Source of the DNA: Patescibacteria group bacterium
Lineage (GTDB): Bacteria > Patescibacteriota > Minisyncoccia > UBA6257 > HR35
Length of the DNA stretch: 32,000 bases
Assembly: GCA_030549845.1 (NCBI GenBank)
Contig: JAUQQN010000001.1
Coordinates: 60,001-92,000 of the forward strand
Direction of reading: 5' to 3'
Within the stretch, counting starts at the first letter, position 1. The number at the start of each line of letters is the position of its first letter. The notes under the pieces were generated by a model, which was not told the DNA's origin, did no database searches, and saw only the letters and a list, made by a program, of their open reading frames with translations. Position numbers and translations under genes: made by a program. Shown here piece by piece: positions 5,396 to 18,877 of this stretch.

Positions 5396-6385
5396 TTAAG
5401 GAAGGATTAAGTTTTTGACGGCTTCTTTGATGGCTTCTTTGTCCAATCCATATTTTTTGATTAAATCTTCCATACTTCCAGATTCACCGAAGGTATTTTG
5501 AAGCCCAATAAAATTCATTTTTATAGGTTTTGTCTTTGCTAAAAATTCAGCAACAGCACTTCCCATTCCACCATGAATCTGATGATCTTCCACTGTAACA
5601 ATCCCCTTAACTTTATTTGCAACTTCTAATATTTTTTCTTCATCCAATGGTTTTATAGTATGTACATTAAAGACATAAACATCTATTCCCTGCTCTTCCA
5701 ATTCTTTTGCTGCAAGTAGCGCTTGATAGACTAAATGTCCAGTTGCCATAATGGCAATTTCAGCACTTTCTGTTTTAGGTTTCCAAAAACATTCTATCTT
5801 CCCAAACCTAAAAGGTGTTTCTTCGGTTGTAATAATTGGAGTTTTTTCTCTTACAAATCTTAAATAAAAAGGACCATAGATTGTTGCAGAATATAAAGTT
5901 GCTTTTTTTGCTTCAAAATAATCACATGGAGAGATTATTCTTATATTAGGCAAACATCTCATAATTGCAATATCCTCTGTTGCTTGGTGAGTTACTCCAT
6001 CAGGTCCAGTAGAAATTCCAGCATGGTGTCCTGCAATTTTAACATTAGAGTTGTTATAAATAATAGTTGTTCTTATTGTTTCCCAATTTTTACCAGGTGA
6101 AAAGGTTGCAAATGAAGAAATAAAAGCAATTTTATTAGAAATACCAAGACCAGCAGCAATTCCGGCCATATTTTGTTCAGCAACCCCACATTCAATGAAT
6201 CTTTCTGGCCATTTTTCAGCAAATTTATGAATTCTTGTTGATTCAGCTAAATCAGCAGTCAATACTACAACGTTAGGATTTTTTTCCCCAAGTTCTAATA
6301 GAGCATCACCATAACCATCCCTTATTGATTTTCTTTCTGGCTCTTCAAAAATTTTTGAATTTAACTTTAATTCAGGGTTAAGCAT
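5396..6385 (-). CDS. Transketolase, C-terminal subunit (pyrimidine-binding plus C-terminal domains)
   Basis: Motifs are RDGYGDALLELG, FIECGVAEQNMAGIAAGL and GPDGVTHQATEDIAIMR. The ATG overlaps the stop of the upstream cohesin gene (TAATG). Confidence 0.9.
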   Translation of the reverse strand: MLNPELKLNSKIFEEPERKSIRDGYGDALLELGEKNPNVVVLTADLAESTRIHKFAEKWPERFIECGVAEQNMAGIAAGLGISNKIAFISSFATFSPGKNWETIRTTIIYNNSNVKIAGHHAGISTGPDGVTHQATEDIAIMRCLPNIRIISPCDYFEAKKATLYSATIYGPFYLRFVREKTPIITTEETPFRFGKIECFWKPKTESAEIAIMATGHLVYQALLAAKELEEQGIDVYVFNVHTIKPLDEEKILEVANKVKGIVTVEDHQIHGGMGSAVAEFLAKTKPIKMNFIGLQNTFGESGSMEDLIKKYGLDKEAIKEAVKNLILP

Positions 6386-7824
6386 TATGGTTTATTATAT
6401 CCTTTTTCTTCTTCTAAATATTCTTCAAACTCTTTTTCTGCTTTTTCCATTATTTCCTTGAATCTCCTATAAATATTTCTTTCCTCTTCGTTAAGGGTTG
6501 GATTTTCATCAAGATTTTTGATTTCTTCTTTCATTTCTCTTATAAATTGCTTAAATTTATTTTTATATCTCTCTTCAAAATCTTTCCAATGTACTTCTCT
6601 TGATTGCTTTTCTGATTTTTCGATTCGTAAAACTAAAATAATAAGTATAATTAAAACAATTAATAGTAGAAAACTGATAAATATAAAAATAAACCAGTTG
6701 CTAAATGGAACTTCTTTTTCAATTATAATGGGTTTTTCAATGGCTTGGAAAGAAATAATTTCTTCTTTTATCGTTTCATTATTTGCTTTATCCTTAATCA
6801 CAATTTTTATTTTTTGAGTACCGCTTAAATTTGTAATTGTTTTTAGTAGCGTTCCATCAACAAATTTTTCTTTAGAATACAATGAATCATTTAGATATAT
6901 TTCTGCTAAATCTAAACCAGAAAGTTCATCTTTAGCAGATACTTTAATATGAAGCGAATTTTGATCGGGAATAAGTGAAAACTCAGAAATAGTTGGGGGG
7001 TTTGTATCGATATTAAACTTAAATCTGGAAATTTCACTAACTCCAGCCTCATTTTCAAATTGTACAGCGAAATAATAAGTTCCATCAGGAATATTTTCTA
7101 ATTTCCTACGAGAAATAGGGGGGCTATATTCTACATAAGGAATTAAATCAGGATTTTTACCATAAGCTGTTTTTACTAGATCTACATCTGAAGGAAGATA
7201 CCATTCAAAAATAGGATTACTATTGTTGTACCATTTATTGGGATCTGGATGGGTAGGTGAGGTTATTATTGGCTTAGGAGGCAAATAAGTTATTGGAGAC
7301 TCTTCTCTAACAATAATTTCTTCTCTTTGTTGTGCTTGAACAACTTTATAACTTCCCCCATACATTGCTTTTAAAATATTGGTCCCCATACCATCATTTG
7401 CTAAAACCATCCCAGAAATGAAATCAATCTTTACCTCTCCTGGTTTAATAGCTTTAAAGTTTATTGTTAAAATTTTTCCTGATTTGCCCTTAAAACCTGG
7501 ATTAAAAACCACTCCTTCAAAAACAAACTCATTACCTTCTATTTCTGGTTCTCTTACCCAAAAATTAAAAATTGATCCAGACTTTGAATGACTAACATAT
7601 TTTAAAATACTATTATCCCAGGTAATTCTGCCTGAAGCAGCATTCATCGATTGGTCGGAAGATTCAACATAAATTGTAATTGTTAAGTTATCGCCGACAT
7701 TCAAATTCTTACTTGAAGGTTGAAGATATAAAGAAGCAGAAAAAGAGAATGCAGGTAATATTAAAAAAACACCAAAAATAAAGAAAATTATAATTATTTT
7801 CTTCTTAAAAATTTTACTATCCAT
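6385..7824 (-). CDS. Cohesin-domain surface protein with N-terminal signal peptide, THPDPNKWY module, Ig-like region, C-terminal TM helix and charged cytoplasmic tail
   Basis: The cohesin-type block (about nt 7330-7740) reads LYLQPSSKNLNVGDNLTITIYVES...NAASGRITWDNSILKYVSHSKSGSIFNFWV...GFKGKSGKILTINFKAIKPGEVKIDFISGMVLANDGMGTNIL. The TM helix is WFIFIFISFLLLIVLIILIILVL. It is followed by a roughly 80-aa K/E-rich tail. Confidence 0.7.
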   Translation of the reverse strand: MDSKIFKKKIIIIFFIFGVFLILPAFSFSASLYLQPSSKNLNVGDNLTITIYVESSDQSMNAASGRITWDNSILKYVSHSKSGSIFNFWVREPEIEGNEFVFEGVVFNPGFKGKSGKILTINFKAIKPGEVKIDFISGMVLANDGMGTNILKAMYGGSYKVVQAQQREEIIVREESPITYLPPKPIITSPTHPDPNKWYNNSNPIFEWYLPSDVDLVKTAYGKNPDLIPYVEYSPPISRRKLENIPDGTYYFAVQFENEAGVSEISRFKFNIDTNPPTISEFSLIPDQNSLHIKVSAKDELSGLDLAEIYLNDSLYSKEKFVDGTLLKTITNLSGTQKIKIVIKDKANNETIKEEIISFQAIEKPIIIEKEVPFSNWFIFIFISFLLLIVLIILIILVLRIEKSEKQSREVHWKDFEERYKNKFKQFIREMKEEIKNLDENPTLNEEERNIYRRFKEIMEKAEKEFEEYLEEEKGYNKP

Positions 7825-8603
7825 TTATCTTTAATTAATTTTATCAATAAATACATAAAAATAGCCAAAAAAACAAGACTGAAAATTTCATCAAAACTTA
7901 ATATTTTTTTAGGTGATAAATATTCTATTCTTTCATTGCCTGCTTTGTCTACAGCCTTAACAAAAATATAACTTCTTAAGGTTTGATCCTTTAGAATATG
8001 CGGAGATTCTGCTTTTACGAAATTTAAATCTTTTAAGTTAGGCTTTATAAAACCTTGTTTTTCAGCAACTTCATAATAAGCAATTCCTGATTGTTTATCA
8101 GTAGTATTAAAAACAATAAAATATTTATTACCAAAGATTTCTTTATTTCGGGATAAATAGATTTTAAAACTTTCTGGAGGGTATTTATCCTCAATTACTT
8201 CTTGAACTTTTAATTTTTGATTATCTAAAAATTTTTTTTCTACTTTTAATTCTACTGAAGTACCTGAACCATCATTTAACAAAACCTTAGACAAAGGTAG
8301 AATTTCAATTAATGCTTTATCTTTTTTAGCTTCAAAAATTAAGTTTATTAAAAGCCCCTTTTTGCCAATATATCCCCCAATACTAACTCCTGAAAATTGA
8401 ATTATATTATTTTGAATAAATGGTTTTTCTATCCAAAAATTAATAATTGAGCCTGCTTCTTGAAAATCGCGAAAAATTAAACTATCAGAAAATTTTATTT
8501 TAACCTCAAAAGCATTTACTGACTCTCCTTCGCTATCTATATGAATAGGAACTATAATTTTTTTATTTACACTGCTCGGCTCTCCAAAATAAATTTTTGC
8601 CAT
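7794..8603 (-). CDS. Second cohesin-like protein with a C-terminal TM anchor and no recognisable N-terminal signal peptide
   Basis: NAFEVKIKFSDSLIFRDFQEAGSIINFWIEKP...GKKGLLINLIFEAKKDKALIEILPLSKVLLNDGSGTSV parallels the cohesin block of the neighbouring gene. The C-terminal helix is IFSLVFLAIFMYLLIKLI. The ORF starts directly with MAKIYFGEPSS. Confidence 0.6.
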   Translation of the reverse strand: MAKIYFGEPSSVNKKIIVPIHIDSEGESVNAFEVKIKFSDSLIFRDFQEAGSIINFWIEKPFIQNNIIQFSGVSIGGYIGKKGLLINLIFEAKKDKALIEILPLSKVLLNDGSGTSVELKVEKKFLDNQKLKVQEVIEDKYPPESFKIYLSRNKEIFGNKYFIVFNTTDKQSGIAYYEVAEKQGFIKPNLKDLNFVKAESPHILKDQTLRSYIFVKAVDKAGNERIEYLSPKKILSFDEIFSLVFLAIFMYLLIKLIKDKWIVKFLRRK

Positions 8604-8604
8604 T

Positions 8605-9648
8605 TTATCCTGTATAATAATAAGCCATAATAGAAAAATCTATTAAATCTACTTTACCATCCCCATTTAATTTTTCTTTTTCTATTTTTGCAAATTCAGA
8701 ACTTAATTTTTTCTTATACCAATAAGCAGCAATGGAAAAATCAACTAAATTTACCTTACAATCATTATTTAAATCTCCTTTTAGGGGACATTTTCCTATT
8801 GTTTTTTTAGGTATAGAAACTTCTCCAACATAAAAACTAAGCGCTCTTGAATAAGGACTAACTAATTGATTTAGGTAAATTTGCCGTGATTTTGTATAGT
8901 GCTGGCCGGTTTCCAAAATACCTGTATCTAAAACATATAAATATGAACCATCTTTTTCGGTTGGAATTCTAAAAAATAACTCTTCTTCAGATGAAACATT
9001 AATAATAACATCGGCATCAGGGGTTGCCTGACCAAAAATTTGTAAAACATCTCCTTTTTTGACAGAGGTTTTATCAATATCAATTGTTGGTGAAAGAAAA
9101 AATCCTGAGCTTCTAACAGTTTGTCCAGCAATAACATTTACTTGAAAAGTTAATAAACTTGATCTTCTACCTTTTGAGTCTTCAGAATACAGGGTAAATA
9201 AATAAAAGCCTGGAGTAAGATTACTTAAGGTAATTTCAAAATCTCCTCTTGCTCCAGCTTTTGTGATCTGTCTTATTTGACCGTCAGAAAGGAGGGTTAC
9301 TTCAGAATTTGGATAAGCTTTACCAGAAATTATAACTGTTCCATACTGAAGGGGTGGAGGAGCCCATCCTCCGCCTCCGCCACCAGGAGGTTGGATTATG
9401 CATTGAGAAGTATTAAAAGTGCAATTAGAATTACAACTTAAATTACCACCACTATATCCTAAAGAAGTGCAGGTTTGTCCACCTAAATCTGGACCATCGC
9501 ACTCTTCATTATTTTCCTTTATATTATTTCCACAAATACCTGGTTTAAATGCTGTTACGCTTACGGAGGCAGATTTTATTTTATAGATAAAAGCTAAGGA
9601 AACAATTAAAAATAATATTAAAATTAGTATAAAATCTTTTAATTTCAT
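8605..9648 (-). CDS. Secreted dockerin-bearing protein: signal peptide, Cys-rich CGNxxxExxEECD module, Pro/Gly hinge, two Ig-like regions and a C-terminal dockerin
   Basis: The C-terminus carries two EF-hand-like dockerin repeats, GDLNNDCKVNLVDFSIAAYWY and LNGDGKVDLIDFSIMAYYY (about nt 8608-8790). The Cys-rich module is GICGNNIKENNEECDGPDLGGQTCTSLGYSGGNLSCNSNCTFNTSQC. The hinge is PPGGGGGGWAPPP. Confidence 0.7.
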   Translation of the reverse strand: MKLKDFILILILFLIVSLAFIYKIKSASVSVTAFKPGICGNNIKENNEECDGPDLGGQTCTSLGYSGGNLSCNSNCTFNTSQCIIQPPGGGGGGWAPPPLQYGTVIISGKAYPNSEVTLLSDGQIRQITKAGARGDFEITLSNLTPGFYLFTLYSEDSKGRRSSLLTFQVNVIAGQTVRSSGFFLSPTIDIDKTSVKKGDVLQIFGQATPDADVIINVSSEEELFFRIPTEKDGSYLYVLDTGILETGQHYTKSRQIYLNQLVSPYSRALSFYVGEVSIPKKTIGKCPLKGDLNNDCKVNLVDFSIAAYWYKKKLSSEFAKIEKEKLNGDGKVDLIDFSIMAYYYTG

Positions 9649-10535
9649 TCATGCTTTTGGGTATATTTTCTAATAATATAAGCGTTATATTTCCTGATTA
9701 ATATTGGTAACACAAAAACAACAAATATTATTAAAGCTACAATCACTGCTATGTAGTAAATATTCAAGAAAATAAACCAGTAATTAAAATTCAAACTATT
9801 GTTTTCTCCATAATTCATATTAAAAATAGCTTTATAAATTCCAAAGGCGAACTTTCCTTGCCATTCGGTTTCTAAAAGCCTTTCAGCATTTGGCAAAATT
9901 TGAAGTTCTTTAGGGTTAATTGGTAAACTAGCTACTTCTTTACCAAAAATATTTTTAATATCGATATAACCTCGAGGAGTGATATAAGTATTTCCTTCAT
10001 TTTTGATTAAATAAGCAAACTTTACTGGAAAATCCCAAACAATTCTTTTGGCATCAAATTTTGCAATAGTTGCTTTATAAATGGCATTACCTCTAACATT
10101 AATAAAAACTAAAGCGCCAACACGGGCAATAATTCCAACTTGACCTGCTTCTGTTTTGGGAGCACCACTCCCAACCCAAATTGCTAAGAAATGTCCGCCA
10201 GGTGGGGCTGCTTGAGGAATATTTATTTTAACTGGGATTTGTATATCTTCTTTTGCTTTTAAAGAAAATTCTTTTTGAACATTAACCCAGTCTTTTTCAG
10301 GGGGATTTTCAAAAAACTTTCTTTCTCCCCCAACATCTGTAAACCCCTCGACAGTGATATAAAATTTAGAATCCCAATCGCTATCGTTTCTAATAAACAA
10401 ATTAAAATCTAAAACATCTCCTGGATTAGCAGTAAATTCTATCTTTGCAGGACCAACAGTTAAAGCATAAGAGTAATTTATTATCACGAGAAAGAGAATT
10501 AAAGGAGAGATGAGGATTAATAACTGTTTCTTCAT
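9645..10535 (-). CDS. Surface protein with DUF916/DUF3324-like architecture (signal peptide, two beta-rich halves, C-terminal TM plus basic tail)
   Basis: The signal peptide is MKKQLLILISPLILFLVIINYSYA. The first half reads LTVGPAKIEFTANPGDVLDFNLFIRNDSD...KINIPQAAPPGGHFLAIWV. The second half reads FAYLIKNEGNTYITPRGYIDIKN...ILPNAERLLETEW. The C-terminal TM is IAVIVALIIFVVFVLPILI, followed by RKYNAYIIRKYTQKHE. The family assignment is by eye only. Confidence 0.45.
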   Translation of the reverse strand: MKKQLLILISPLILFLVIINYSYALTVGPAKIEFTANPGDVLDFNLFIRNDSDWDSKFYITVEGFTDVGGERKFFENPPEKDWVNVQKEFSLKAKEDIQIPVKINIPQAAPPGGHFLAIWVGSGAPKTEAGQVGIIARVGALVFINVRGNAIYKATIAKFDAKRIVWDFPVKFAYLIKNEGNTYITPRGYIDIKNIFGKEVASLPINPKELQILPNAERLLETEWQGKFAFGIYKAIFNMNYGENNSLNFNYWFIFLNIYYIAVIVALIIFVVFVLPILIRKYNAYIIRKYTQKHE

Positions 10536-10553
10536 ACCTGCTTGTTATGTTTT

Positions 10554-11180
10554 TTAATTAGCACTACATTGATAAGTTATTGTATCACTATAATCACCTG
10601 CTGGAGCTAATGCTGAAACAGCTACTTTATGGGTAACAACAACTTCTCTATTAGCCACTGGTTGTGATGAGGAGGCTAAGGTCTGAAATGTTGTAGTTAA
10701 TTTGCCAACAGTATTACCTGTTTGATTATAGATTGGGTTTAAGGATAAAATACCCCCTGAACCAGATGTTGTTGTAGCTGCTTGAATTCCATAACCATCT
10801 GTTCCAGGCTGTAAGGTTGCTGTATTTGGAAAACCACTTGCTGGTGAAGGAATTAAATATGTAGGAGAAGTTGACTTGTATAAGCCTCCATTCGTTCCAT
10901 CGCCTTGATCTTTAATTTCTACTTTGCAACCACCTCCCGGATTACAAGAAACAACAGTTGTTATGTTAGGTGATGAAGTAAAGACTGCTGATGTATCGAT
11001 ATTACCAAAAGAAGTTGAGGTTGCTGATGGCGTACATGTCACTGTTTGAGTAACACTTGCAGAAACAGAAACAGAGCCCCCTGTTTGAGCAAAAAGGCGA
11101 CCTAAAGAAAAAATTTCTATAAATGGAGGGAAATAAAGCGAGAGGATTAAAATATATATTAAAACTTTTAATTTTTTCAT
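10554..11180 (-). CDS. Small secreted S/T/G-rich protein, paralogous to the C-terminal module of the 1231-aa giant protein
   Basis: The signal peptide ends at about RLFAQ. Residues 47-208 align with the last 150 aa of the giant protein. Identical runs are GLYKSTSPTYLI and PGTDGYGIQA, and the ends match (VTCT/LTCT, and GDYSDTITYQCS versus GNYSDIITYSCS). Confidence 0.65.
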   Translation of the reverse strand: MKKLKVLIYILILSLYFPPFIEIFSLGRLFAQTGGSVSVSASVTQTVTCTPSATSTSFGNIDTSAVFTSSPNITTVVSCNPGGGCKVEIKDQGDGTNGGLYKSTSPTYLIPSPASGFPNTATLQPGTDGYGIQAATTTSGSGGILSLNPIYNQTGNTVGKLTTTFQTLASSSQPVANREVVVTHKVAVSALAPAGDYSDTITYQCSAN

Positions 11181-11224
11181 ATATTTAAGCGTTTATTTTC
11201 TTAATTTTCGACCACATTAATCAC

Positions 11225-11274
11225 ATAAGTATAACAAAATTTAAATTAATTATATAAGTATAACAAAATTTAAA
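11225..11274 (-). promoter_or_regulatory. Duplicated 21-nt element carrying an extended -10-like box, upstream of the small secreted-protein gene
   Basis: ATAAGTATAACAAAATTTAAA occurs at 11225-11245 and 11254-11274, a 29-nt period. On the minus strand each copy reads TTTAAATTTTGTTATACTTAT, which contains TGTTATACT (a TGn plus TATACT extended -10). The copies lie 45-95 nt upstream of the ATG at 11180. Confidence 0.35.
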
Positions 11275-11329
11275 AATTTCGCAAAACCAAACTGTGAATA
11301 ATCGCCCTTTTTTAAATACACACCCAATC

Positions 11330-11350
11330 TATGGACTTACGAAGTCGATA
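11330..11350 (+). repeat. Hairpin repeat, copy 1 (left of the transposase)
   Basis: In TATGGACTTACGAAGTCGATA, the stem TAT-G-GACTT pairs with AAGTC-G-ATA with one G:G mismatch. The loop is ACG. Confidence 0.8.
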
Positions 11351-11404
11351 CGCGATGTTTATTTATTAAAAAATTTGTAAAAATTAATGTAAAATTGAAA
11401 TAAA

Positions 11405-12091
11405 ATGGAGATTTATCACGTTTTAAATCGGGGAGTAGACAAACGAATAATTTTCTTTGACGAAAAAGATTATTTAAGATTTATACACGATCTTTACGAA
11501 TTTAACGATGAAGAGCCAGCAATGAATACTAATTATTTTTTCAACAAATTTAAAAATATAGACTTACGAAGTCGATATATTGCTAACCAAAGAAGAAAGA
11601 ATAGGAAAATGATAGTAAAAATTTTTGCTTTTTGTTTGATGCCTAATCATTATCATTTAATGCTTTCTCCTATCGTAAAAGATGGTATTACTAAATTTAT
11701 GAGAAAGTTAAATATTGGGTATGCAAAGTATTTCAATGAAAAGTATGGAAGGGTTGGTACTTTATTTGAAAGAAGATATAAGGCAATACCTATTACAAAA
11801 GAAAGTCATTTCATTTATCTGCCTACTTATATTCATCTAAATCCCTTAGATTTGAAATTTCCTGAATGGCGAAATAAAGAAATAAGAAATTATAAGGAAG
11901 CAATGAAATTCTTGGAAAGTTATCGTTGGTCAAGTTTTCTTGATTATATTGGTAAAAAGAATTTCCCATCTATAACTCAAAGAGAGTTTTTAAATAAAAT
12001 CTGGGGAGGACCTAAAGAAATCAGAAAAAACATTCTAAGATGGTTAAAAGAAATGGATTTTGAAGAAATGAAAGAGATCACCCTAGAATGA
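11405..12091 (+). CDS. IS200-like / REP-associated tyrosine (Y1, HUH) transposase
   Basis: Motifs are YHVLNRGVDKRIIF, CLMPNHYHLML (HUH) and GTLFERRYKAIPI (catalytic Tyr region). At 228 aa it is larger than a minimal TnpA. Confidence 0.8.
   Translation: MEIYHVLNRGVDKRIIFFDEKDYLRFIHDLYEFNDEEPAMNTNYFFNKFKNIDLRSRYIANQRRKNRKMIVKIFAFCLMPNHYHLMLSPIVKDGITKFMRKLNIGYAKYFNEKYGRVGTLFERRYKAIPITKESHFIYLPTYIHLNPLDLKFPEWRNKEIRNYKEAMKFLESYRWSSFLDYIGKKNFPSITQREFLNKIWGGPKEIRKNILRWLKEMDFEEMKEITLE
11557..11577 (+). repeat. Hairpin repeat, copy 2, inside the transposase CDS
   Basis: TATAGACTTACGAAGTCGATA has one mismatch to the flanking copies. It encodes the residues DLRSRY. Confidence 0.8.
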
Positions 12092-12107
12092 TCTGCGTAA
12101 AAGTAAT

Positions 12108-12128
12108 TATGGACTTACGAAGTCGATA
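12108..12128 (+). repeat. Hairpin repeat, copy 3 (right of the transposase)
   Basis: This copy is identical to copy 1. It lies 17 nt after the transposase stop and 36 nt before the stop codon of the giant gene. Confidence 0.8.
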
Positions 12129-12163
12129 GATTGACGACAGATTGGCATATTGGCATAGATTAA

Positions 12164-15100
12164 TTAGAGGGAGCTGCAAGAATAGGTAATTATGTCAGAA
12201 TAGTTGCCAGTGGGAGCAATATATGAAGCAGAGGCTTTATGTTTAATAATAATTTGAGCGTTAGAGACAGCAGTTGTTGAAGAAGCTAATTGAATATCAG
12301 TTAAACTAAGCCCACCAACATTATTCCCGCTTTTATTATATTTTGGATTAATAGTTATATTTGAGTTAGTTGTTGTTGCTTGAATTCCATAACCATCAGT
12401 TCCCGGAGTTAAAGTTGCATCAGTAGACTGAATTAAATAAGTAGGTGAAGTTGATTTATAAAGCCCAGGATTTGTGCCATTTCCAGCATCTTTAACTGTT
12501 ATTTGAAAACCACCAGAAGAAGTAATAGTAATTGTAATGTCTGGAGTTGAGGTTGAAACAGAAGATGGTGATAAATTCGAAAAAGAAGTAGAAGTAGCTG
12601 AAAGAGTACAAGTCAAAGCTGGAGCAGCTGCAGTGGTAATTTGAGGAATAACTGAATAAGTATCTAATAAGCTTCCGTCTGCTTTAACAACTCTAAAACA
12701 ATAAGTTGTTTCTGGAGGTGCACCGTTGTCTTTTAAAGCAAAGTCCCATTTACCATCTTGACCTGGAAGAATTGCTGCTTGAGAGTTAGTAAAGTTATTT
12801 ACTTCTTCATAAGTTTGATTAACAACCGTATCTGCACCATGAGTTGGGTCATTAGAATTAGGAGTTAATGGTGCACCATCATTTGGTGTAGGATTATCAT
12901 AAAAAGAAATAATTGTCGTAGCTGTTACATCGCTCCATAAAGAAGGAGGAGATGAAGTACAGCTTGAACCTGTTGAAGTTCCAAATTGAAGTTTAAACTC
13001 TTGACCTGAAATAGAGAGAGTTCCAGTTGAAATATGTATTAATAATCTTAATCTAAAAACCTGACCAGGATAGATTAAAATTGCCGGTGTATCTTGATTA
13101 GCTAAGGGACTACCGACATCAGTTGAATCTAAGTTATTAAAAAATCTATAAGCAGATTGATTATATGTAACATCGACTTCTAACCATTCAATTTCTAGTC
13201 TGACTACAAAGTTTGCATCACCAGCTGCAGATTCTTGATATAAAGCAAAACCTTCGCCTGGAGCTATCATAAGCTCATCTTGAAAAACAATTTCTATATG
13301 ATAAATTCCATAATTTTGGTTAACAGCGCCAGGTTGAGTAACACCTAATAAACGAGAATGAGTATTTTGATCAAAACTCACTATAGGATTATTTATTGAA
13401 ATTTCAGCAGTTGAATTAGGTGTTGAAGAGTTTTTAGGTAAAATATCAGTTTTATTTATCAAAGTATCACCTTTAGCTGATTTTACTTTTCTTATGGAAA
13501 TTGGAATATAAGTTGGTGCAGTTGCTGCTGCAGTTCTATCTACTCTAATTCCTATCCTTTTTACCAAATAATTCTTACCTGAAAAGAAAGGATTGAAAAA
13601 TGAAGAATAAACATAACCTGCATTTAAATTTCCTGCAATTGGTCCGGTATAAAAAAGATATTCTCCTTGAGGATCAGGAGCAGCTGTTACTTCTTGCCAT
13701 TCTATTAAAATTTTTACTACCAAAACTGAGCTTCCAGCTGCTTCTTGATATAAAGCAATACCTTCTCCTGGTTTTAAAATTAATTTTTCATCATTTCTGA
13801 AGATAATTTCTCTATAACCTCCTAAAGAAGGTGCTGTAGCCGCACCTACAGCACCAGGAGTTTGAACTGAAACCAATCTTGCATCATTAGTTCCAATAAA
13901 ACTTACTGTTACCCCTGTTCTTCTTATATCTGCAACTGAATTAGGACTTCCAGAATGTTTTTTAGGTATATTAGCTGTGGTAATTTGCGTTCCCCCAGAA
14001 GCTGAATTTATTTTTCTTAAGGTCATTGGAATATAAACACCTGCTCCAGTAGTATCAATTCTTATATCAATTCTTTTGACAACAAAATACCTTCCAGAAG
14101 CAGAAGGATTAAAAAATGAAGCATAAACATAATTTGCTGCTGTAGAACCATTAATTGGCCCGATATCAATTAAATATTCATTTTGAGCTGAAGGAGTGTC
14201 TGGTTTTTCTTGCCATTCAATCATTACTTTAATATAATGATCAACATCTCCAGCTGCTTCAATATAAAAGCCAATTCCTTCTCCTGGCTGTAAAATCAAT
14301 TTTTCATTGTCACCAAAAACTATTTCTCGATGGCCAATAACCTGAGCTACTGCGCCAGGACCATTTACTGTCAAAAGCCTTGAATCAGTTGTACCAACAT
14401 ATGTTGCGGTAATTGCTGTTCCACAAGCTGATCCGCACCAACGAATTTCCATTGCACTATTTGCGCTTCCAGTATGTTTTTTCGGAATATCTGTAGCTGC
14501 AATAAGTAAACCACCTGAAGCAGCACTTAATCTTCTCCAAGTAAAAGCAGAATAAACTGCTGCAGCGTCAGCATCATTTCTAATAACTAATCTTTTAACA
14601 ATTGCTGTTCTCCCAGAACCAGATGGGTTAAAAAAGGTAAAAAATGTTGTATTAGCAGCTGCAGCTACTTCAATTCTTCCTAAAGCAATTAAATACTCAT
14701 TTTGAGCTGAAGGAGTAGTTGTTACTTCTTGCCATTCAACAACCAATCTTATTAATTGATCAACATCTCCAGCAGTGTCTGCCACTAAAGCAATTCCTTC
14801 TCCTGGTTGTAAAATCAATTTTTCGTCAGTTTGATCAAAATTTAAATACATAAAACCATGAGGCTGACCAGCGGCACCACAAGGGGTAACCATAGCAATT
14901 CTTGCATCAGTTCCTCCAACTAAAGTAACAGTAACTCCTGTATGTCTAAGATCCATAGCTGTATTTGCACTTCCTGTATGCTTTTTAGGTACATCAGCAG
15001 CAGGAATTTGGGTTCCTCCAGAAGCAGCTGAAATTCTTCTAATGACAAGGTTATTTGTGTAAACAGCTGCTGCATCGCAAGTTTCAGCACCAAACCAAAT

Positions 15101-15859
15101 TCTCTTTATAATTGCTACCCTTCCTGAGCCAGCAGGATTAAAAAATGAATGATAAACATAATTAGCTCCACCAGCATTTTCTACTCTTGGAAAAGCAAAT
15201 AAATATTCATTTTGGGCTGTAGGAGTACTACTTGAAGAAATTTCTTCCCATTCTACATAAAGTCTTATAAGATGAGCAGTTGTCCCTGCTGCTTCTTGAT
15301 AAAGAGCAAGTCCTTCTCCTTGTTGTAAAATAATTGGTTCGTCTGAATTAGTAAATTGAATATCTCTTATGCTGTGCCACTGCCCAGCAGCACCAGGCAT
15401 TGCTTGTGATAAAATTCTTGAATTAGCCGTTCCAGCAAAAGTAACTGTTGGCCCAGCATATCTTACATCTAAAACAGGATCTGAAGAATAATTATTTTTT
15501 TTAGGAATATCAGCTGGTAAAATTTGTGTTCCGCCCGAAGCAGCAGTAATTCTTCTTAGAGTAAGATTCACATAATTACCTGTACCATTAGCAAAAGCTC
15601 TTACTACAATTCTTTTTATTAAAACAGTTCTTCCTGAAGCAGAGGGATTAAAAACAGAAGCATAAACATAATTTGCTGTTGCTGTCCCAGCTACTGGCCC
15701 GATGTCAACAAAATATTCATTTTTGTAAGGACTTAACTCGGCTTTGCTTTCTCTTTTGTTTAACAATAAATCTAAATTTAAAAATGACAAAAAGAGAATA
15801 GTTATTAGTAAGAATTTTGCTGTTTTTTTAAAAAAGATAAAAATATTTTTAGCTTTCAT
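12164..15859 (-). CDS. Giant secreted surface protein (1231 aa): signal/anchor helix, five tandem ~170-aa repeats, a ~186-aa middle domain, and a C-terminal ~150-aa module shared with the small neighbour
   Basis: This is an uninterrupted 3.7-kb ORF. The N-terminal hydrophobic segment is FLLITILFLSFLNL. The repeat, middle-domain and C-terminal-module boundaries were derived from the translation. The ATG overlaps the upstream gene's stop (ATGA). Confidence 0.85.
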   Translation of the reverse strand: MKAKNIFIFFKKTAKFLLITILFLSFLNLDLLLNKRESKAELSPYKNEYFVDIGPVAGTATANYVYASVFNPSASGRTVLIKRIVVRAFANGTGNYVNLTLRRITAASGGTQILPADIPKKNNYSSDPVLDVRYAGPTVTFAGTANSRILSQAMPGAAGQWHSIRDIQFTNSDEPIILQQGEGLALYQEAAGTTAHLIRLYVEWEEISSSSTPTAQNEYLFAFPRVENAGGANYVYHSFFNPAGSGRVAIIKRIWFGAETCDAAAVYTNNLVIRRISAASGGTQIPAADVPKKHTGSANTAMDLRHTGVTVTLVGGTDARIAMVTPCGAAGQPHGFMYLNFDQTDEKLILQPGEGIALVADTAGDVDQLIRLVVEWQEVTTTPSAQNEYLIALGRIEVAAAANTTFFTFFNPSGSGRTAIVKRLVIRNDADAAAVYSAFTWRRLSAASGGLLIAATDIPKKHTGSANSAMEIRWCGSACGTAITATYVGTTDSRLLTVNGPGAVAQVIGHREIVFGDNEKLILQPGEGIGFYIEAAGDVDHYIKVMIEWQEKPDTPSAQNEYLIDIGPINGSTAANYVYASFFNPSASGRYFVVKRIDIRIDTTGAGVYIPMTLRKINSASGGTQITTANIPKKHSGSPNSVADIRRTGVTVSFIGTNDARLVSVQTPGAVGAATAPSLGGYREIIFRNDEKLILKPGEGIALYQEAAGSSVLVVKILIEWQEVTAAPDPQGEYLFYTGPIAGNLNAGYVYSSFFNPFFSGKNYLVKRIGIRVDRTAAATAPTYIPISIRKVKSAKGDTLINKTDILPKNSSTPNSTAEISINNPIVSFDQNTHSRLLGVTQPGAVNQNYGIYHIEIVFQDELMIAPGEGFALYQESAAGDANFVVRLEIEWLEVDVTYNQSAYRFFNNLDSTDVGSPLANQDTPAILIYPGQVFRLRLLIHISTGTLSISGQEFKLQFGTSTGSSCTSSPPSLWSDVTATTIISFYDNPTPNDGAPLTPNSNDPTHGADTVVNQTYEEVNNFTNSQAAILPGQDGKWDFALKDNGAPPETTYCFRVVKADGSLLDTYSVIPQITTAAAPALTCTLSATSTSFSNLSPSSVSTSTPDITITITSSGGFQITVKDAGNGTNPGLYKSTSPTYLIQSTDATLTPGTDGYGIQATTTNSNITINPKYNKSGNNVGGLSLTDIQLASSTTAVSNAQIIIKHKASASYIAPTGNYSDIITYSCSSL
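13175..15721 (-). repeat. Five tandem in-frame coding repeats (164-173 aa each) of an unassigned domain
   Basis: The units are at 15212-15721, 14702-15211, 14183-14701, 13667-14182 and 13175-13666. Each starts with (N/G)EY(L/F). Each contains ANYVYASFFNPSxSGR, VKRI, LRRIxAASGGTQI, DIPKKHxGS, EKLILQPGEGIALYQEAAG and IEWQE-like blocks. Short DNA stretches are also conserved, for example tcattttgagctgaaggagt at about 14170 and about 14697. Confidence 0.85.
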
Positions 15860-17430
15860 TGCTCTTCAAGTATAAATCCTAGTTCTTCAAGTTTCTCCTT
15901 TGCTAAAAACTTATCTAAATTAAAATTTTTTCTAAAATCTTCTAAAACTAAACTATAATCATCAGAAAAAACTTCACCATGAATATTATCTTTAAAATAT
16001 AGATTATGTCCGTCATAGATAACCTCATAAGTTATTTCTTGAAAATTAACAATAGCCCTTTCTCCCTTAGATTTATCAAACTTAGGTAACTTTTTTTTAT
16101 AAATTTTTGTATTTTTGTAATCTGCAGCAAAAATTAAAGATTCTTCTTCATTTATCCAAAAAACAAAATTTTCTTTCGAAGCAATTACTGAATTATCGGA
16201 AGGCGAAATTACACCAGAAGCAATTTTTTTAATTGTTTTGTTGCTTACATTAATTAATAACAATTCATTTTCTTTTGTTTCTTTATTAAAAACAAAAGCA
16301 ATAAGTTCTGTAGGTGAAATTCCTTTGATTTTTTTAATTTCTAACTTATTAAAATCAAAATTTCCTAATTCCTGGAATTTATCAATTTTAATTTCTTCTT
16401 CATAACTTTCTTTACTGCTCTTTTTATTATATTCAACTTCTAAACTCATGCTTTCTAAATATAAATAAGGAATATTTTCAATTGTTGGGTTTGATTGAAC
16501 TTTGATTTGAATTTTTGAAATCATTAGCCAGTCATTAACTGGAATAGAAAAACTTACATCTTGCGAATTTTTATTGGTTATTGAACCCAAATATTGCCAA
16601 GTTTGAGCATCAAGAGTGTAAAAGATATCAAAATAATTTAGGGTTTGCTCTAATTGTGTTGTAGAAGTTATTTCTTCTTGAGCAGTTGTTGTTTCTTGGG
16701 TTGTTGTATTTGTTTCTTGAGTTGTCAGCTCCTGAGCTTTCGTTGCTTCAGGAGTTATTGTATTTGTCTCTTGGATTATCGTGTTTATTGTTTCTTCGGT
16801 TGTAGAAGTTACAAAAGTTTGCTCGCTTGTCAAATTTTCATTAGGATAAGCTGGTTCTGAATTTGTAATTTCTTCTGCAAAAACTATTTTGTAAAAAAAT
16901 GACTGAGGAATTTCGATTGTTGAAGTTGAAGGATTTTCTGGGACTGTATTTGTTGAATTTTCTGTTGAAGTATTCATAACTTCAATTGTTTTTGGTGGAA
17001 GAATTTTTTCGATTAATGACTTTGAAGATGTTGGCTGAATGATAGGTGTTTCTCTTCTTTCATTTGTTAAAATCATATTAAATTTAAGAGTTATCTTTCG
17101 AATTTCACCTTCTTCAATTGGTCCTTGAAAATTTCCGCAGTAAATTTCTTTGAATCCTCCTAAATAAACAGCTGAATTTGTTTCATTTATTAAATCTGGA
17201 CTTTCAACCTCAGGTTTACCTTGTGCTTTTTCAGGATTAATAAAACTTCCTAAGCAAGATGAAGGATAAAAATATAAAATATCGGCCTTACTTTCTTTTA
17301 GTATGAATTTATTCCAAACAATAATTAAAAAAATAATAAAAGCGAGTATTATAAATTCCTTTTTGAAGATTTTTAAAAGTATAGTATGAAAGAGCTCCCA
17401 GGTCTTTTTTTGAACAAATTTTGGGATCAT
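15856..17430 (-). CDS. Membrane-anchored hypothetical protein with a Thr/Glu-rich linker
   Basis: The TM helix is FIILAFIIFLIIVWNKFIL. The low-complexity segment is IIQETNTITPEATKAQELTTQETNTTTQETTTAQEEITSTTQ. The C-terminal half is beta-rich. It is translationally coupled (ATGA) to the giant gene. Confidence 0.6.
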   Translation of the reverse strand: MIPKFVQKKTWELFHTILLKIFKKEFIILAFIIFLIIVWNKFILKESKADILYFYPSSCLGSFINPEKAQGKPEVESPDLINETNSAVYLGGFKEIYCGNFQGPIEEGEIRKITLKFNMILTNERRETPIIQPTSSKSLIEKILPPKTIEVMNTSTENSTNTVPENPSTSTIEIPQSFFYKIVFAEEITNSEPAYPNENLTSEQTFVTSTTEETINTIIQETNTITPEATKAQELTTQETNTTTQETTTAQEEITSTTQLEQTLNYFDIFYTLDAQTWQYLGSITNKNSQDVSFSIPVNDWLMISKIQIKVQSNPTIENIPYLYLESMSLEVEYNKKSSKESYEEEIKIDKFQELGNFDFNKLEIKKIKGISPTELIAFVFNKETKENELLLINVSNKTIKKIASGVISPSDNSVIASKENFVFWINEEESLIFAADYKNTKIYKKKLPKFDKSKGERAIVNFQEITYEVIYDGHNLYFKDNIHGEVFSDDYSLVLEDFRKNFNLDKFLAKEKLEELGFILEEQ

Positions 17431-17512: not shown

Positions 17513-17962
17513 TTATAAAGGAGAAATATCAAATGATTCTGAATTTGGTTTTAAAGGTGCAACATGTTGTATCCAAATATCATCTGGTGCTTTTCCTGTA
17601 AGAGATGGGAAATATTTTGCTATAATCCAACCACCTTCTTTAGTAGGAGAAGGTGCGATTTTTATAACTCTGAATACTTCATTACCAAATCTCATTTTTT
17701 CTTCATTTCCTAATATTTCTACTAATATCTCGAAGGTTTTTTGAACTTTTTCTCTATCTTTTTCTGAAATTAATTGAAATTCTACATAAGTTCCCTCTTC
17801 TTTTTCAAGCAATTCTTTTAAAAAATCTATCAATCTCTTTTTTAATGTTTCATCTAGGTTTTGAGTATTTTCTAGTTTATTAATCACATCAATCAACGAG
17901 GACCTATAAGCTTCTTTTTTATTTTCTGAGCTTTTACTTAGTTCTCCTCCAAATTGTTCCAT
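17513..17962 (-). CDS. Hypothetical acidic cytoplasmic protein
   Basis: This is a 149-aa ORF with no TM segment and no recognised motif. It lies between the transketolase N-half and the surface block. Confidence 0.5.
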   Translation of the reverse strand: MEQFGGELSKSSENKKEAYRSSLIDVINKLENTQNLDETLKKRLIDFLKELLEKEEGTYVEFQLISEKDREKVQKTFEILVEILGNEEKMRFGNEVFRVIKIAPSPTKEGGWIIAKYFPSLTGKAPDDIWIQHVAPLKPNSESFDISPL

Positions 17963-18010: not shown

Positions 18011-18877
18011 TTATTGATGTTCACTAATTATTCTACCACCTAAGGTTCTTAATTCATCTAAAGCTTTTTTTGCTTCTTCTTTATTTGGTGGTTTTCCATG
18101 CCATTCAAATTTCTTCTCCATAAAACTTACGCCCTTCCCTGGAATAGTATAAGCAATAATTACTGATGTTCTTTTCCACTCTGATCTTGCTTCTCTTACA
18201 ACATCAACGAAAGCCCTTATGTTATGACCATCAACTTCTAAAACATGCAAACCAAATGATTCTAATTTTTGTTTTAATGGTTCAAGAGGCATAACATCTT
18301 CAGTGAATCCATCAATTTGGATATAATTTCTGTCAATTATTATCGTTAAATTATCAAGCTGGTTTTTCCCTAAAAACATATAAGCTTCCCAGATATTTCC
18401 TTCTTGATGTTCGCCATCAGAAGTTATACAGTACACATGGTAATCTTTTTGATCAAGTTTTCCAGCAATTGCTATTCCAATTGCTTGAGATAGGCCTTCA
18501 CCTAATGCACCTGATGTATTTTCTATACCTGGTAGACTCCCCCTATGAGGATGGCCTTGCAATCTTGAATTAACTTTTCTTAAAGTTTTTAACTCTTCTA
18601 TCGGGAAATAGCCTGCTAAAGCTAAAGCTGCATATTGCGCAGGGCATATATGGCCATTAGATATTACTAATCTATCTCTATCTTCCCAATTTGGATTTTT
18701 AGGATCGTGCCTTAAGATATGAAAGTAAAATGCAGAAAATATATCAGCCATTCCAAGTGGTCCAGCAGAATGTCCTGAGCCAGCTTCTAAAAGCATTTCA
18801 ATAATTAATTTCCTTATTTCATTTGCTTTTTCTTCTAAAAACTTTAGTTTTTCTTCGGTGATTTCCTCTATCATCAA
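18011..18877 (-). CDS. Transketolase, N-terminal (thiamine-diphosphate-binding) subunit
   Basis: Motifs are SGHSAGPLGMADI, RDRLVISNGHICPAQYA, LQGHPH and ITSDGEHQEGNIWEA...IIDRN. The track start at 18877 is a TTG. An ATG follows at 18874 and may be the true start. Confidence 0.9.
   Translation of the reverse strand: MMIEEITEEKLKFLEEKANEIRKLIIEMLLEAGSGHSAGPLGMADIFSAFYFHILRHDPKNPNWEDRDRLVISNGHICPAQYAALALAGYFPIEELKTLRKVNSRLQGHPHRGSLPGIENTSGALGEGLSQAIGIAIAGKLDQKDYHVYCITSDGEHQEGNIWEAYMFLGKNQLDNLTIIIDRNYIQIDGFTEDVMPLEPLKQKLESFGLHVLEVDGHNIRAFVDVVREARSEWKRTSVIIAYTIPGKGVSFMEKKFEWHGKPPNKEEAKKALDELRTLGGRIISEHQ

Follow-up and report, generated by a model that had tools for sequence, protein, structure and literature searches.

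A 32,000-nt window (the whole stretch of DNA that was analysed, and the source of all coordinates below) of contig JAUQQN010000001.1, from the Patescibacteria group bacterium assembly GCA_030549845.1, contains a run of seven co-oriented genes on the minus strand. In the open reading frame (ORF) list of the window these genes encode proteins of 524, 1231, 208, 296, 347, 269, and 479 amino acids (aa). The locus, from a monoderm Patescibacterium of the Parcubacteria/Minisyncoccia lineage, probably specifies a donor-strand pilus that is assembled with a chaperone but without an usher, and its most likely product is a thin adhesive surface fibre built by donor-strand exchange. This reading starts from observed folds, from homologies at the level of protein families, from the conserved synteny of the seven genes, and from the exclusive distribution of a donor-strand-like motif. 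Donor-strand pili of the candidate phyla radiation (CPR) are already known from the description of the Pam pili in 2026, and the locus is a variant whose sister system is described there.

An initial annotation of positions 9645-17430 had interpreted the genes as a surface complex following the logic of WxL loci, with a DUF916/DUF3324-like anchor and with a small and a giant protein that share a C-terminal module, either a very divergent WxL relative or an independent analogue. The minus-strand ORFs of 524, 1231, 208, and 296 aa were confirmed as described there. The interpretation itself is partly supported and proved half right, in that the chaperone is WxLIP-like and the shared module is not a WxL domain.

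Chaperone, pilin module, and donor-strand-like motif

The AlphaFold2 (AF2) model of the 296-aa protein, made from a 43-sequence alignment, has a predicted local distance difference test (pLDDT) score of 91.3. It comprises a signal peptide, two beta-sandwich domains (residues ~25-147 and 155-256), and a C-terminal transmembrane (TM) helix (residues 259-295) with a basic tail, which is the architecture initially described for this protein. The top fold matches in the Protein Data Bank (PDB) are the E. faecium WxLIP structures 9i1y and 9i25 (Foldseek, E 4e-12 to 8e-11). Next come CfaA, CsuC, Caf1M, FimC, DraB, and SafB, which span four chaperone-usher classes, together with RbmA and PapD-like ASH/SPD-2 domains. 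When the profile of the chaperone family was compared with the whole PDB, EfmWxLIP1 was the only sequence match (E 0.008). The Pfam family WxLIP_PGBD (DUF916) matches 22 of 43 close relatives (best E 1.2e-6) and 35 of 52 representatives of the wider family (best E 1.7e-8); the window protein alone gives a sub-threshold match (E 0.17), and WxLIP_HBD is matched by only two of the 43 chaperone-family members. The proposed resemblance to DUF916/DUF3324 (WxLIP) proteins thus holds at the family level. In metagenomes the chaperone family is very large: clustering at 50% identity gives 16,867 clusters when the threshold is E<=1e-3 and 10,014 when it is E<=1e-10. The family conserves the mature N-terminus A-(L/V)-T-V-G-P-A-K and the motif A-P-P-G-G-H-F. 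Four family representatives (P0193, P0203, P0206, and P0310) are 637-802 aa long and contain the chaperone-like region partially or in two to three stretches, which suggests that they are chaperone fusions or duplications.

The sole internal segment of low pLDDT in the 296-aa model is the loop at aa 123-137, followed by the last strand of domain 1. After this variable loop the family consensus reads Q-V-x-I-V-x-R-V-G-x-L-V-(F/Y)-I-N-V-S-G, with alternating hydrophobic residues at the G1 position of PapD-like chaperones. The segment at aa 131-148 may therefore act as a donor strand.

The C-terminal module common to the small and the large protein was recovered by BLASTP, which aligned residues 47-207 of the 208-aa protein with residues 1082-1230 of the 1231-aa protein (53% identity, E 1e-42). 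As noted initially, neither copy contains Trp, and the translations show GYGI and YSD(T/I)ITY(Q/S)C. The 208-aa protein consists of a signal peptide, an N-terminal donor-strand-like stretch, and a single pilin domain ending three residues past an invariant Cys. Its AF2 model (pLDDT 90.7) has a signal helix, unstructured residues 24-46, and a beta domain. Two Cys are invariant in the pilin family (C49, after the N-terminal extension, and C205, three residues before the end of the chain), and the C-terminus is fixed. Foldseek matches of the 208-aa protein in the PDB are mostly chaperone-usher pilins, namely CfaB, CsuA/B, the PapG pilin domain, FimA, FimG, FimF, and PapE; unrelated AP2 mu2-adaptin chains are also among them, and no WxL chain is among the top 50.

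Sequence comparisons of the pilin family point in the same direction. The NCBIfam model NF058581 (CPR_Pam_pilin_C) matches the 208-aa protein over model positions 4-147 of 148 (E 3.9e-4) and, again sub-threshold, 34 of 41 pilin-family members (best E 1.1e-6). Pfam SCPU, the Csu-type pilin family, matches 13 of the 41, and Pfam WxL matches none of them at E<=1. Judged by these searches, the common module belongs to the pilin-type domains, as a distant relative of the Pam pilin C-domain, and is not the divergent WxL relative once considered; the sub-threshold CPR_Pam_pilin_C matches indicate distant homology and, by the NCBI criterion, not membership. The link to Pam comes from the NCBIfam model. 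Sequence searches of the PDB yielded neither a PamA nor a PamB chain, and single-sequence PDB searches with the 208- and 296-aa proteins returned nothing useful. Relatives of ~360 aa were also considered as PamB-like two-domain pilins and rejected, their CPR_Pam_pilin_C match being again only sub-threshold.

For comparison, GTDB species representatives were scanned with the chaperone alignment, which gave 38 loci. Almost all of these are labelled Patescibacteria (Parcubacteria, Wolfe-, Jorgensen-, Lipton-, Nomura-, and Kaiserbacteria, Paceibacterota, and Minisyncoccia), and the synteny of 24 of them (L001-L024) was determined by profile and phmmer searches of six-frame ORFs. In all 24 loci the small pilin carries the motif V-x-V-x-A-x-V-x-x-x-V-x-C a few residues past the predicted signal cleavage site; in the window pilin it reads S36-VSVSASVTQTVT-C49. 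V39 does not vary, and conservation reaches at least 90% at A41 and V43. A similar motif, S-V-x-[VI]-[TS]-A, is present just after the signal peptide, at the mature N-terminus, in 24 of 24 orthologues of the 347-aa protein. Its window version reads S28-VSVTAF and is followed by the invariant C39, with V29 at least 90% conserved and A33 invariant. None of the large proteins has V-x-V-x-A before the module, and many have Y-x-V-I-P-Q-I-T-T-A before the same Cys. A strict form of the motif, V[TSN][VI][TSN]A[TSNIF][VIFK], occurs 38 times in the 231,794 six-frame residues of the loci, in the 24 small pilins and in 14 orthologues of the 347-aa protein, and nowhere else in those residues. This distribution and the fold matches agree with an incomplete immunoglobulin (Ig) fold that is served by an N-terminal donor strand, and with a tip adhesin that has no donor strand.

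The large protein comprises a signal peptide, five tandem repeats of ~170 aa, a domain of ~175 aa, and the C-terminal pilin (acceptor) module. The repeats match no family in Pfam or NCBIfam. Across L001-L024 the N-terminal parts of the large proteins are very variable in length and sequence, as expected of adhesins.

Downstream of the chaperone, the 347-aa protein has a signal peptide, the donor-strand-like motif, a Cys-rich module, a Gly linker, Ig-like domains, and a C-terminal type I dockerin, and it has no pilin domain. Among its orthologues Dockerin_1 was found in 21 of 21 (best E 4.4e-9) and Big_6 in 20 of 21. The 269-aa protein combines a cohesin-like N-terminal domain with an Ig-like domain and a C-terminal TM helix, and its family profile matches only the Ruminococcus cohesins 5aoz and 5m2o in the PDB (E 0.0015-0.0024). 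Distant orthologues of this protein have a clear signal peptide. The 479-aa protein consists of a signal peptide, a cohesin-like domain, Ig-like domains, a TM helix, and a charged cytoplasmic tail; its profile matches the same two cohesins (E 0.014-0.016) and the Ig-like repeats of 2yn3 (E 5e-7). No RbmA-like gene was recognised among the cluster proteins by Pfam or NCBIfam.

From these observations we infer polymerisation, the order of the subunits, the roles of terminator and anchor, and any role of the 524-aa protein. Patescibacteria are monoderm, and all subunits would be exported by Sec. The 296-aa protein, as a two-domain chaperone of the PapD/WxLIP type tethered in the cytoplasmic membrane by its C-terminal helix, would use the last strand of its first domain to cap new subunits at their incomplete Ig-like pilin domain. 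Having an acceptor domain and no donor strand, the 1231-aa protein could only occupy the tip, where its five novel repeats would be displayed as an adhesin. The 208-aa protein has both the donor strand V-x-V-x-A-x-V and an acceptor domain and would thus form the shaft by head-to-tail polymerisation. PapH is a terminator without an acceptor site, and the 347-aa protein, with a donor strand only and no acceptor, would likewise end growth, as PapH or PamR do; its dockerin would then attach the fibre to the 479-aa (and 269-aa) proteins, which are cohesin-like and TM-anchored. The 524-aa protein may be an assembly platform. Together, the pilin-family matches, the chaperone-usher pilin folds, and the donor-strand-like motif make a polymerising pilus more likely than the wall-binding display module that had been suggested for the common domain.

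Several points weigh against a pilus. No filament has been seen for the source organism. The fold matches of the pilin are weak (E 3e-3 to 0.1, TM-score 0.34-0.56), its family profile finds no pilin chain in the PDB by sequence, and its CPR_Pam_pilin_C score of 20.5 bits lies far under the NCBI cut-off of 55. The pilin has one domain, as against two in PamA and PamB. On the anchoring side, the cohesin assignment of the 269- and 479-aa proteins is tentative, with E values of about 1e-3 to 1e-2; Pfam Cohesin is reached by just one member of the 269-aa family (E 0.098), and the 269-aa protein has no signal peptide in the clade of the window, where it starts with MAKIYF or similar (window and L002-L006). 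Finally, WxLIP of Firmicutes is thought to hold its partner stably and not to assemble a fibre (PMC10599100).

Gene order and extent of the locus

A single gene order is found in L001-L024, and it is complete wherever the contig extends far enough. It begins with a TM protein similar to the 524-aa protein, recognised in eight loci directly upstream of the large adhesin. In loci reaching far enough upstream, the large protein (500-1767 aa) ends exactly with the pilin module. The small pilin (~200-230 aa) and the homologue of the 296-aa chaperone follow. The dockerin protein lies directly downstream of the chaperone in 24 of 24 loci, and a protein similar to the 269-aa protein lies downstream of it in 22 of 24. 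The last gene corresponds to the 479-aa protein, with a full-length orthologue in about 19 of 24 loci (in L006 elsewhere on the contig); most of the contigs that lack it stop before its position. The genes for the large protein, the small protein, and the chaperone are adjacent, co-oriented, and constant in order in all 24 related loci, giving a positive answer to the co-occurrence check across Patescibacteria that the initial annotation had called for. Their association is far beyond chance.

In the window, the genes had been described as co-oriented and coupled. This holds for their orientation and for the 4-nt ATGA overlaps, which by their coordinates lie between the 524- and 1231-aa genes (15856-15859) and between the 296- and 347-aa genes (9645-9648), but the small and the giant gene are not adjacent, as a RAYT gene lies between them. 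The span of 9645-17430 has to be extended. Since the 347-, 269-, and 479-aa genes belong to the conserved unit, a left boundary at 9645 halves the system; the functional unit in the window is 6385-17430, of which the shorter region is only a part (Table 1).

Table 1. Coordinates of the pilus-like gene cluster, its candidate functional segments, and the inserted transposase gene
Feature	Position	Strand	Basis
479-aa putative membrane anchor	6385-7824	-	DUF7743 4e-6, Big_13
269-aa cohesin-like protein	7794-8603	-	Family profile vs PDB
347-aa putative pilus terminator / anchor adaptor	8605-9648	-	Big_6 6.6e-6, Dockerin_1 2e-4
Donor-strand-like motif of 347-aa protein (aa 28-35, SVSVTAFK)	9544-9567	-	24 orthologues
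296-aa WxLIP / PapD-like chaperone, membrane-anchored	9645-10535	-	AF2, Foldseek, profile vs PDB, Pfam
Putative G1-type complementing strand of chaperone (aa 131-148, QVGIIARVGALVFINVRG)	10092-10145	-	AF2 and family consensus
208-aa small pilin, putative shaft subunit	10554-11180	-	AF2, Foldseek, NCBIfam, Pfam
Donor-strand-like N-terminal extension of pilin (aa 36-48, SVSVSASVTQTVT, just before invariant C49)	11037-11075	-	Family conservation
1231-aa putative tip adhesin	12164-15859	-	ORF, BLASTP, repeat analysis, locus position
C-terminal pilin module of adhesin (aa 1082-1231)	12167-12616	-	BLASTP; pilin-family (A2) profile match reaches last residue
Five tandem ~170-aa repeats of adhesin (aa 45-900)	13160-15727	-	Pairwise identity 36-54%
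524-aa conserved membrane protein	15856-17430	-	ORF; overlaps adhesin gene by 4 nt
RAYT / IS200-like Y1 transposase gene	11405-12091	+	Pfam Y1_Tnp 2.9e-10, NCBIfam REP_Tyr_transpos 1e-9

The RAYT element that separates the adhesin and pilin genes spans 11325-12133 with its flanks. A REP-like 21-mer, TATGGACTTACGAAGTCGATA, flanks the gene at 11330 and 12108, and a third copy with one mismatch lies inside it at 11557. RAYT is not found at the adhesin/pilin junction in any locus from other genomes, which identifies it as a secondary insertion; it is unrelated to, and not part of, the surface system. A related RAYT is present in L010 at a different position of the cluster.

In the 524-aa protein a single TM segment at the N-terminus is followed by a conserved Cys-pair domain, by a linker rich in Thr, Glu, and Gln, and by a C-terminal domain; the residues conserved in its family include C59 and C98. 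The protein has no informative match in Pfam, NCBIfam, or the PDB. Neither the TolB-like protein of L025 nor any PDB entry proved to be related to it, and these candidates were rejected. The sequence E-S-K-A-(E/D) occurs right after the N-terminal hydrophobic segment in both the adhesin (KRESKAELSP, window 15730-15760) and the 524-aa protein (LKESKADILY, 17280-17300), and it could be a common processing site or a coincidence.

The halves of a split transketolase enclose the cluster: 18011-18877 codes for the N-terminal subunit, and 5396-6385, which codes for the C-terminal one, overlaps the 479-aa gene by 1 nt. L005 and L010 show this placement too, and L003, L004, and L009 show it on the C-terminal side. 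A 149-aa ORF between the N-terminal transketolase half and the cluster (17513-17962) has no family match, and none of the 38 related loci contains a homologue. The scan for promoters and terminators was uninformative, with fewer promoter-like sites than in shuffled sequences and with terminator-like hairpins inside genes, and the window contains no tRNA genes.

A second type of locus is represented by L025-L038 (for example, L025 2798-12662). Here two tandem chaperone-like genes (~340 and ~550 aa) lie downstream of a gene for a 2047-aa protein and are followed by genes for a small TM protein and a thioredoxin/ResA-like protein. Even with the threshold relaxed to E<=10, this locus type shows no recognisable pilin module. 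It may represent another variant of the system.

A sequence identical to the window has been deposited as 'Candidatus Aenigmatarchaeota archaeon' (JAWAJM01; L001), and close homologues are labelled Aenigmatarchaeota or Thermoplasmata. An archaeal origin, as given by the label of this metagenome-assembled genome, was rejected on the grounds that the window encodes a bacterial-type D-aminoacyl-tRNA deacylase, Dtd (TIGR00256, 1e-31), and that all relatives are Patescibacteria. The archaeal label is probably a binning or classification error.

Alternative readings and comparison with known systems

Among known systems, a WxL cluster is defined by one WxLIP with a small and a large WxL protein (Hassan et al. 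2023, PMC10599100). The initial annotation was correct in recognising this logic at the present locus, where one WxLIP-like protein is accompanied by a small and a large protein with a common C-terminal domain, and where the 296-aa protein stands closest to WxLIP (9i1y, 9i25) in structure as well as in sequence. The two systems also share a predicted strand that completes the beta-sandwich of the partner: in the AF2 prediction for WxL proteins, a hairpin strand of WxLIP is inserted, in parallel orientation, where the WxL sandwich has a gap (PMC10599100). They differ in the module, which here lacks WxL motifs, Trp, and a Pfam WxL match and resembles chaperone-usher and Pam pilins, in the donor-strand motif of the small subunit, and in the additional 524-aa and dockerin/cohesin genes; no LPXTG partner was seen.

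These likenesses define the main rival to a polymerising pilus, a static display of the WxL type, in which the 296-aa protein would permanently hold one small or large protein by strand complementation, without forming a polymer. The module would then be an attachment domain and the giant protein a plain surface adhesin. Such a display would explain why WxLIP is the closest solved relative of the 296-aa protein by fold and sequence and why the gene logic is identical to that of WxL clusters; WxLIP has been proposed to bind and stabilise WxL, and the TM helix of the chaperone could itself provide the anchor. It does not explain the donor-strand motif on two different proteins, as neither the small protein nor the dockerin protein would have a use for it in a 1:1 complex. 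The module, moreover, matches Pam pilin C, SCPU, and chaperone-usher pilin folds, not WxL, and the related Pam system forms filaments. We therefore regard static display as unlikely, even though no other alternative comes as close.

The donor-strand pilus reading leads to the Pam pili of Ca. Mycosynbacter amalyticus, which were resolved by cryo-EM as filaments of PamA and PamB (Troman et al., bioRxiv 10.64898/2026.03.03.709456). PamA and PamB each consist of a nine-strand N-terminal domain, a linker that serves as donor strand, and a truncated Ig C-domain; the predicted chaperones PamC and PamD are PapD/FimC-like and carry a TM helix at the C-terminus, the tip pilin PamT has a single domain, and PamR is an RbmA-like, TM-anchored terminator that donates its N-terminal strand (bioRxiv 10.64898/2026.03.03.709456). 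Homologues were reported mainly from Saccharimonadia and Microgenomatia, and the paper makes no mention of WxL, DUF916, or Parcubacteria (bioRxiv 10.64898/2026.03.03.709456). The same work overtakes the initial description of a system of the present kind as uncharacterised. In common with Pam, the locus has a monoderm CPR host and no usher, a pilin domain that would likewise be a truncated Ig fold completed by a donor strand, a PapD-like chaperone with a C-terminal TM helix, and a terminator that would donate its N-terminal strand and link the fibre to the membrane. The module here also matches the Pam pilin C model over its full length.

It could accordingly be asked whether the locus is an orthologous Pam operon, that is, a divergent copy of pam with PamA/B/E/T pilins, PamC/D chaperones, and a PamR anchor, whose architecture would not be new. 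The CPR host, the full-length though sub-threshold CPR_Pam_pilin_C matches, and the TM-anchored PapD-like chaperone, as in PamC/D, would fit such a copy. The match, however, reaches only 20.5 bits instead of 55, and the shaft subunit is a single-domain protein of 208 aa with an N-terminal donor strand in place of the two-domain NTD-linker-CTD arrangement. There is one chaperone instead of PamC plus PamD, and the presumed tip is a giant 1231-aa repeat adhesin instead of the small PamT. A dockerin adaptor and cohesin-like TM anchors seem to replace the RbmA-like PamR, whose role is apparently split between the 347- and 479-aa proteins, and the lineage is Parcubacterial, as opposed to mainly Saccharimonadia and Microgenomatia in the paper. 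An orthologous Pam operon is thus very improbable.

With the cellulosome, the locus shares a type I dockerin, at the C-terminus of the 347-aa protein, and cohesin-like N-terminal domains (a weak assignment) in cell-bound partners. It differs in having no enzymes, in its presumed cargo, a pilus, and in anchors that are TM helices and not SLH domains or sortase. A mini-cellulosome-like scaffold, with the dockerin protein and cohesin-like anchors as its core and the pilin- and chaperone-like proteins as co-located Ig-fold surface proteins, is the least credible alternative and scarcely to be expected: it would account for the robust dockerin in all orthologues of the 347-aa protein, for the cohesin-like profile matches of the 269- and 479-aa proteins, and for the conservation of these three genes, as high as that of the others, but it leaves the common C-terminal module, the PapD/WxLIP-like chaperone, and the N-terminal motif common to the pilin and the dockerin protein unexplained, and the cluster contains no enzymes or further dockerin proteins by Pfam and NCBIfam.

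Among the chaperone-usher systems, a pilus of the kind proposed here resembles the archaic (sigma, Csu) and alternate (class 5, CFA/I) types, with a chaperone similar to CfaA and CsuC, a pilin similar to CfaB and CsuA/B, and sequence matches to SCPU. The proposed logic is also alike, in that the tip adhesin has a pilin domain but no donor strand, the subunits that polymerise bear an N-terminal extension, and the terminator lacks an acceptor. Parallel orientation, as predicted for the WxLIP strand, is a hallmark of donor-strand complementation in chaperone-usher pili. In contrast to these systems, the locus has no outer membrane or usher to work with (Pfam and NCBIfam give no usher match for any of the seven conserved proteins), the chaperone is membrane-tethered and not soluble in a periplasm, and the pilin domain, at about 160 aa, exceeds theirs in size.

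A large part of bacterial diversity belongs to the Patescibacteria; they lead a life attached to host cells, yet little is known of their attachment organelles. If the proposed model is true, donor-strand pili extend to Parcubacteria with a minimal set of subunits, and the anchoring of a pilus by dockerin and cohesin is a new use of that module. The WxL loci of Enterococcus, Listeria, and Lactobacillus are mechanistically debated, and the chaperone described here offers a bridge that suggests that WxLIP is a tethered PapD-like chaperone; we found no paper linking WxL to donor-strand or chaperone-usher assembly, or to CPR.

The bridge consists in a chaperone that is related in sequence to WxLIP of Firmicutes and a pilin that is related to those of CPR Pam and of the Csu type, which together suggest one ancient family of monoderm chaperone-subunit systems. 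It is conceivable, if as yet doubtful, that WxL/WxLIP clusters, Pam pili, and the Parcubacterial family form a single ancient usher-less donor-strand family homologous to the chaperone-pilin core of chaperone-usher systems, with WxL proteins as pilin-like subunits and with dockerin-cohesin termination and anchoring as a new form of ending a pilus. As it stands, the locus works like WxL, Pam, and chaperone-usher systems and falls within none of them: the absence of a WxL domain separates it from the WxL family, the score under the cut-off, the single-domain pilin, and the different anchor separate it from the Pam family by the NCBI definition, and the absence of an usher separates it from classical chaperone-usher pili.

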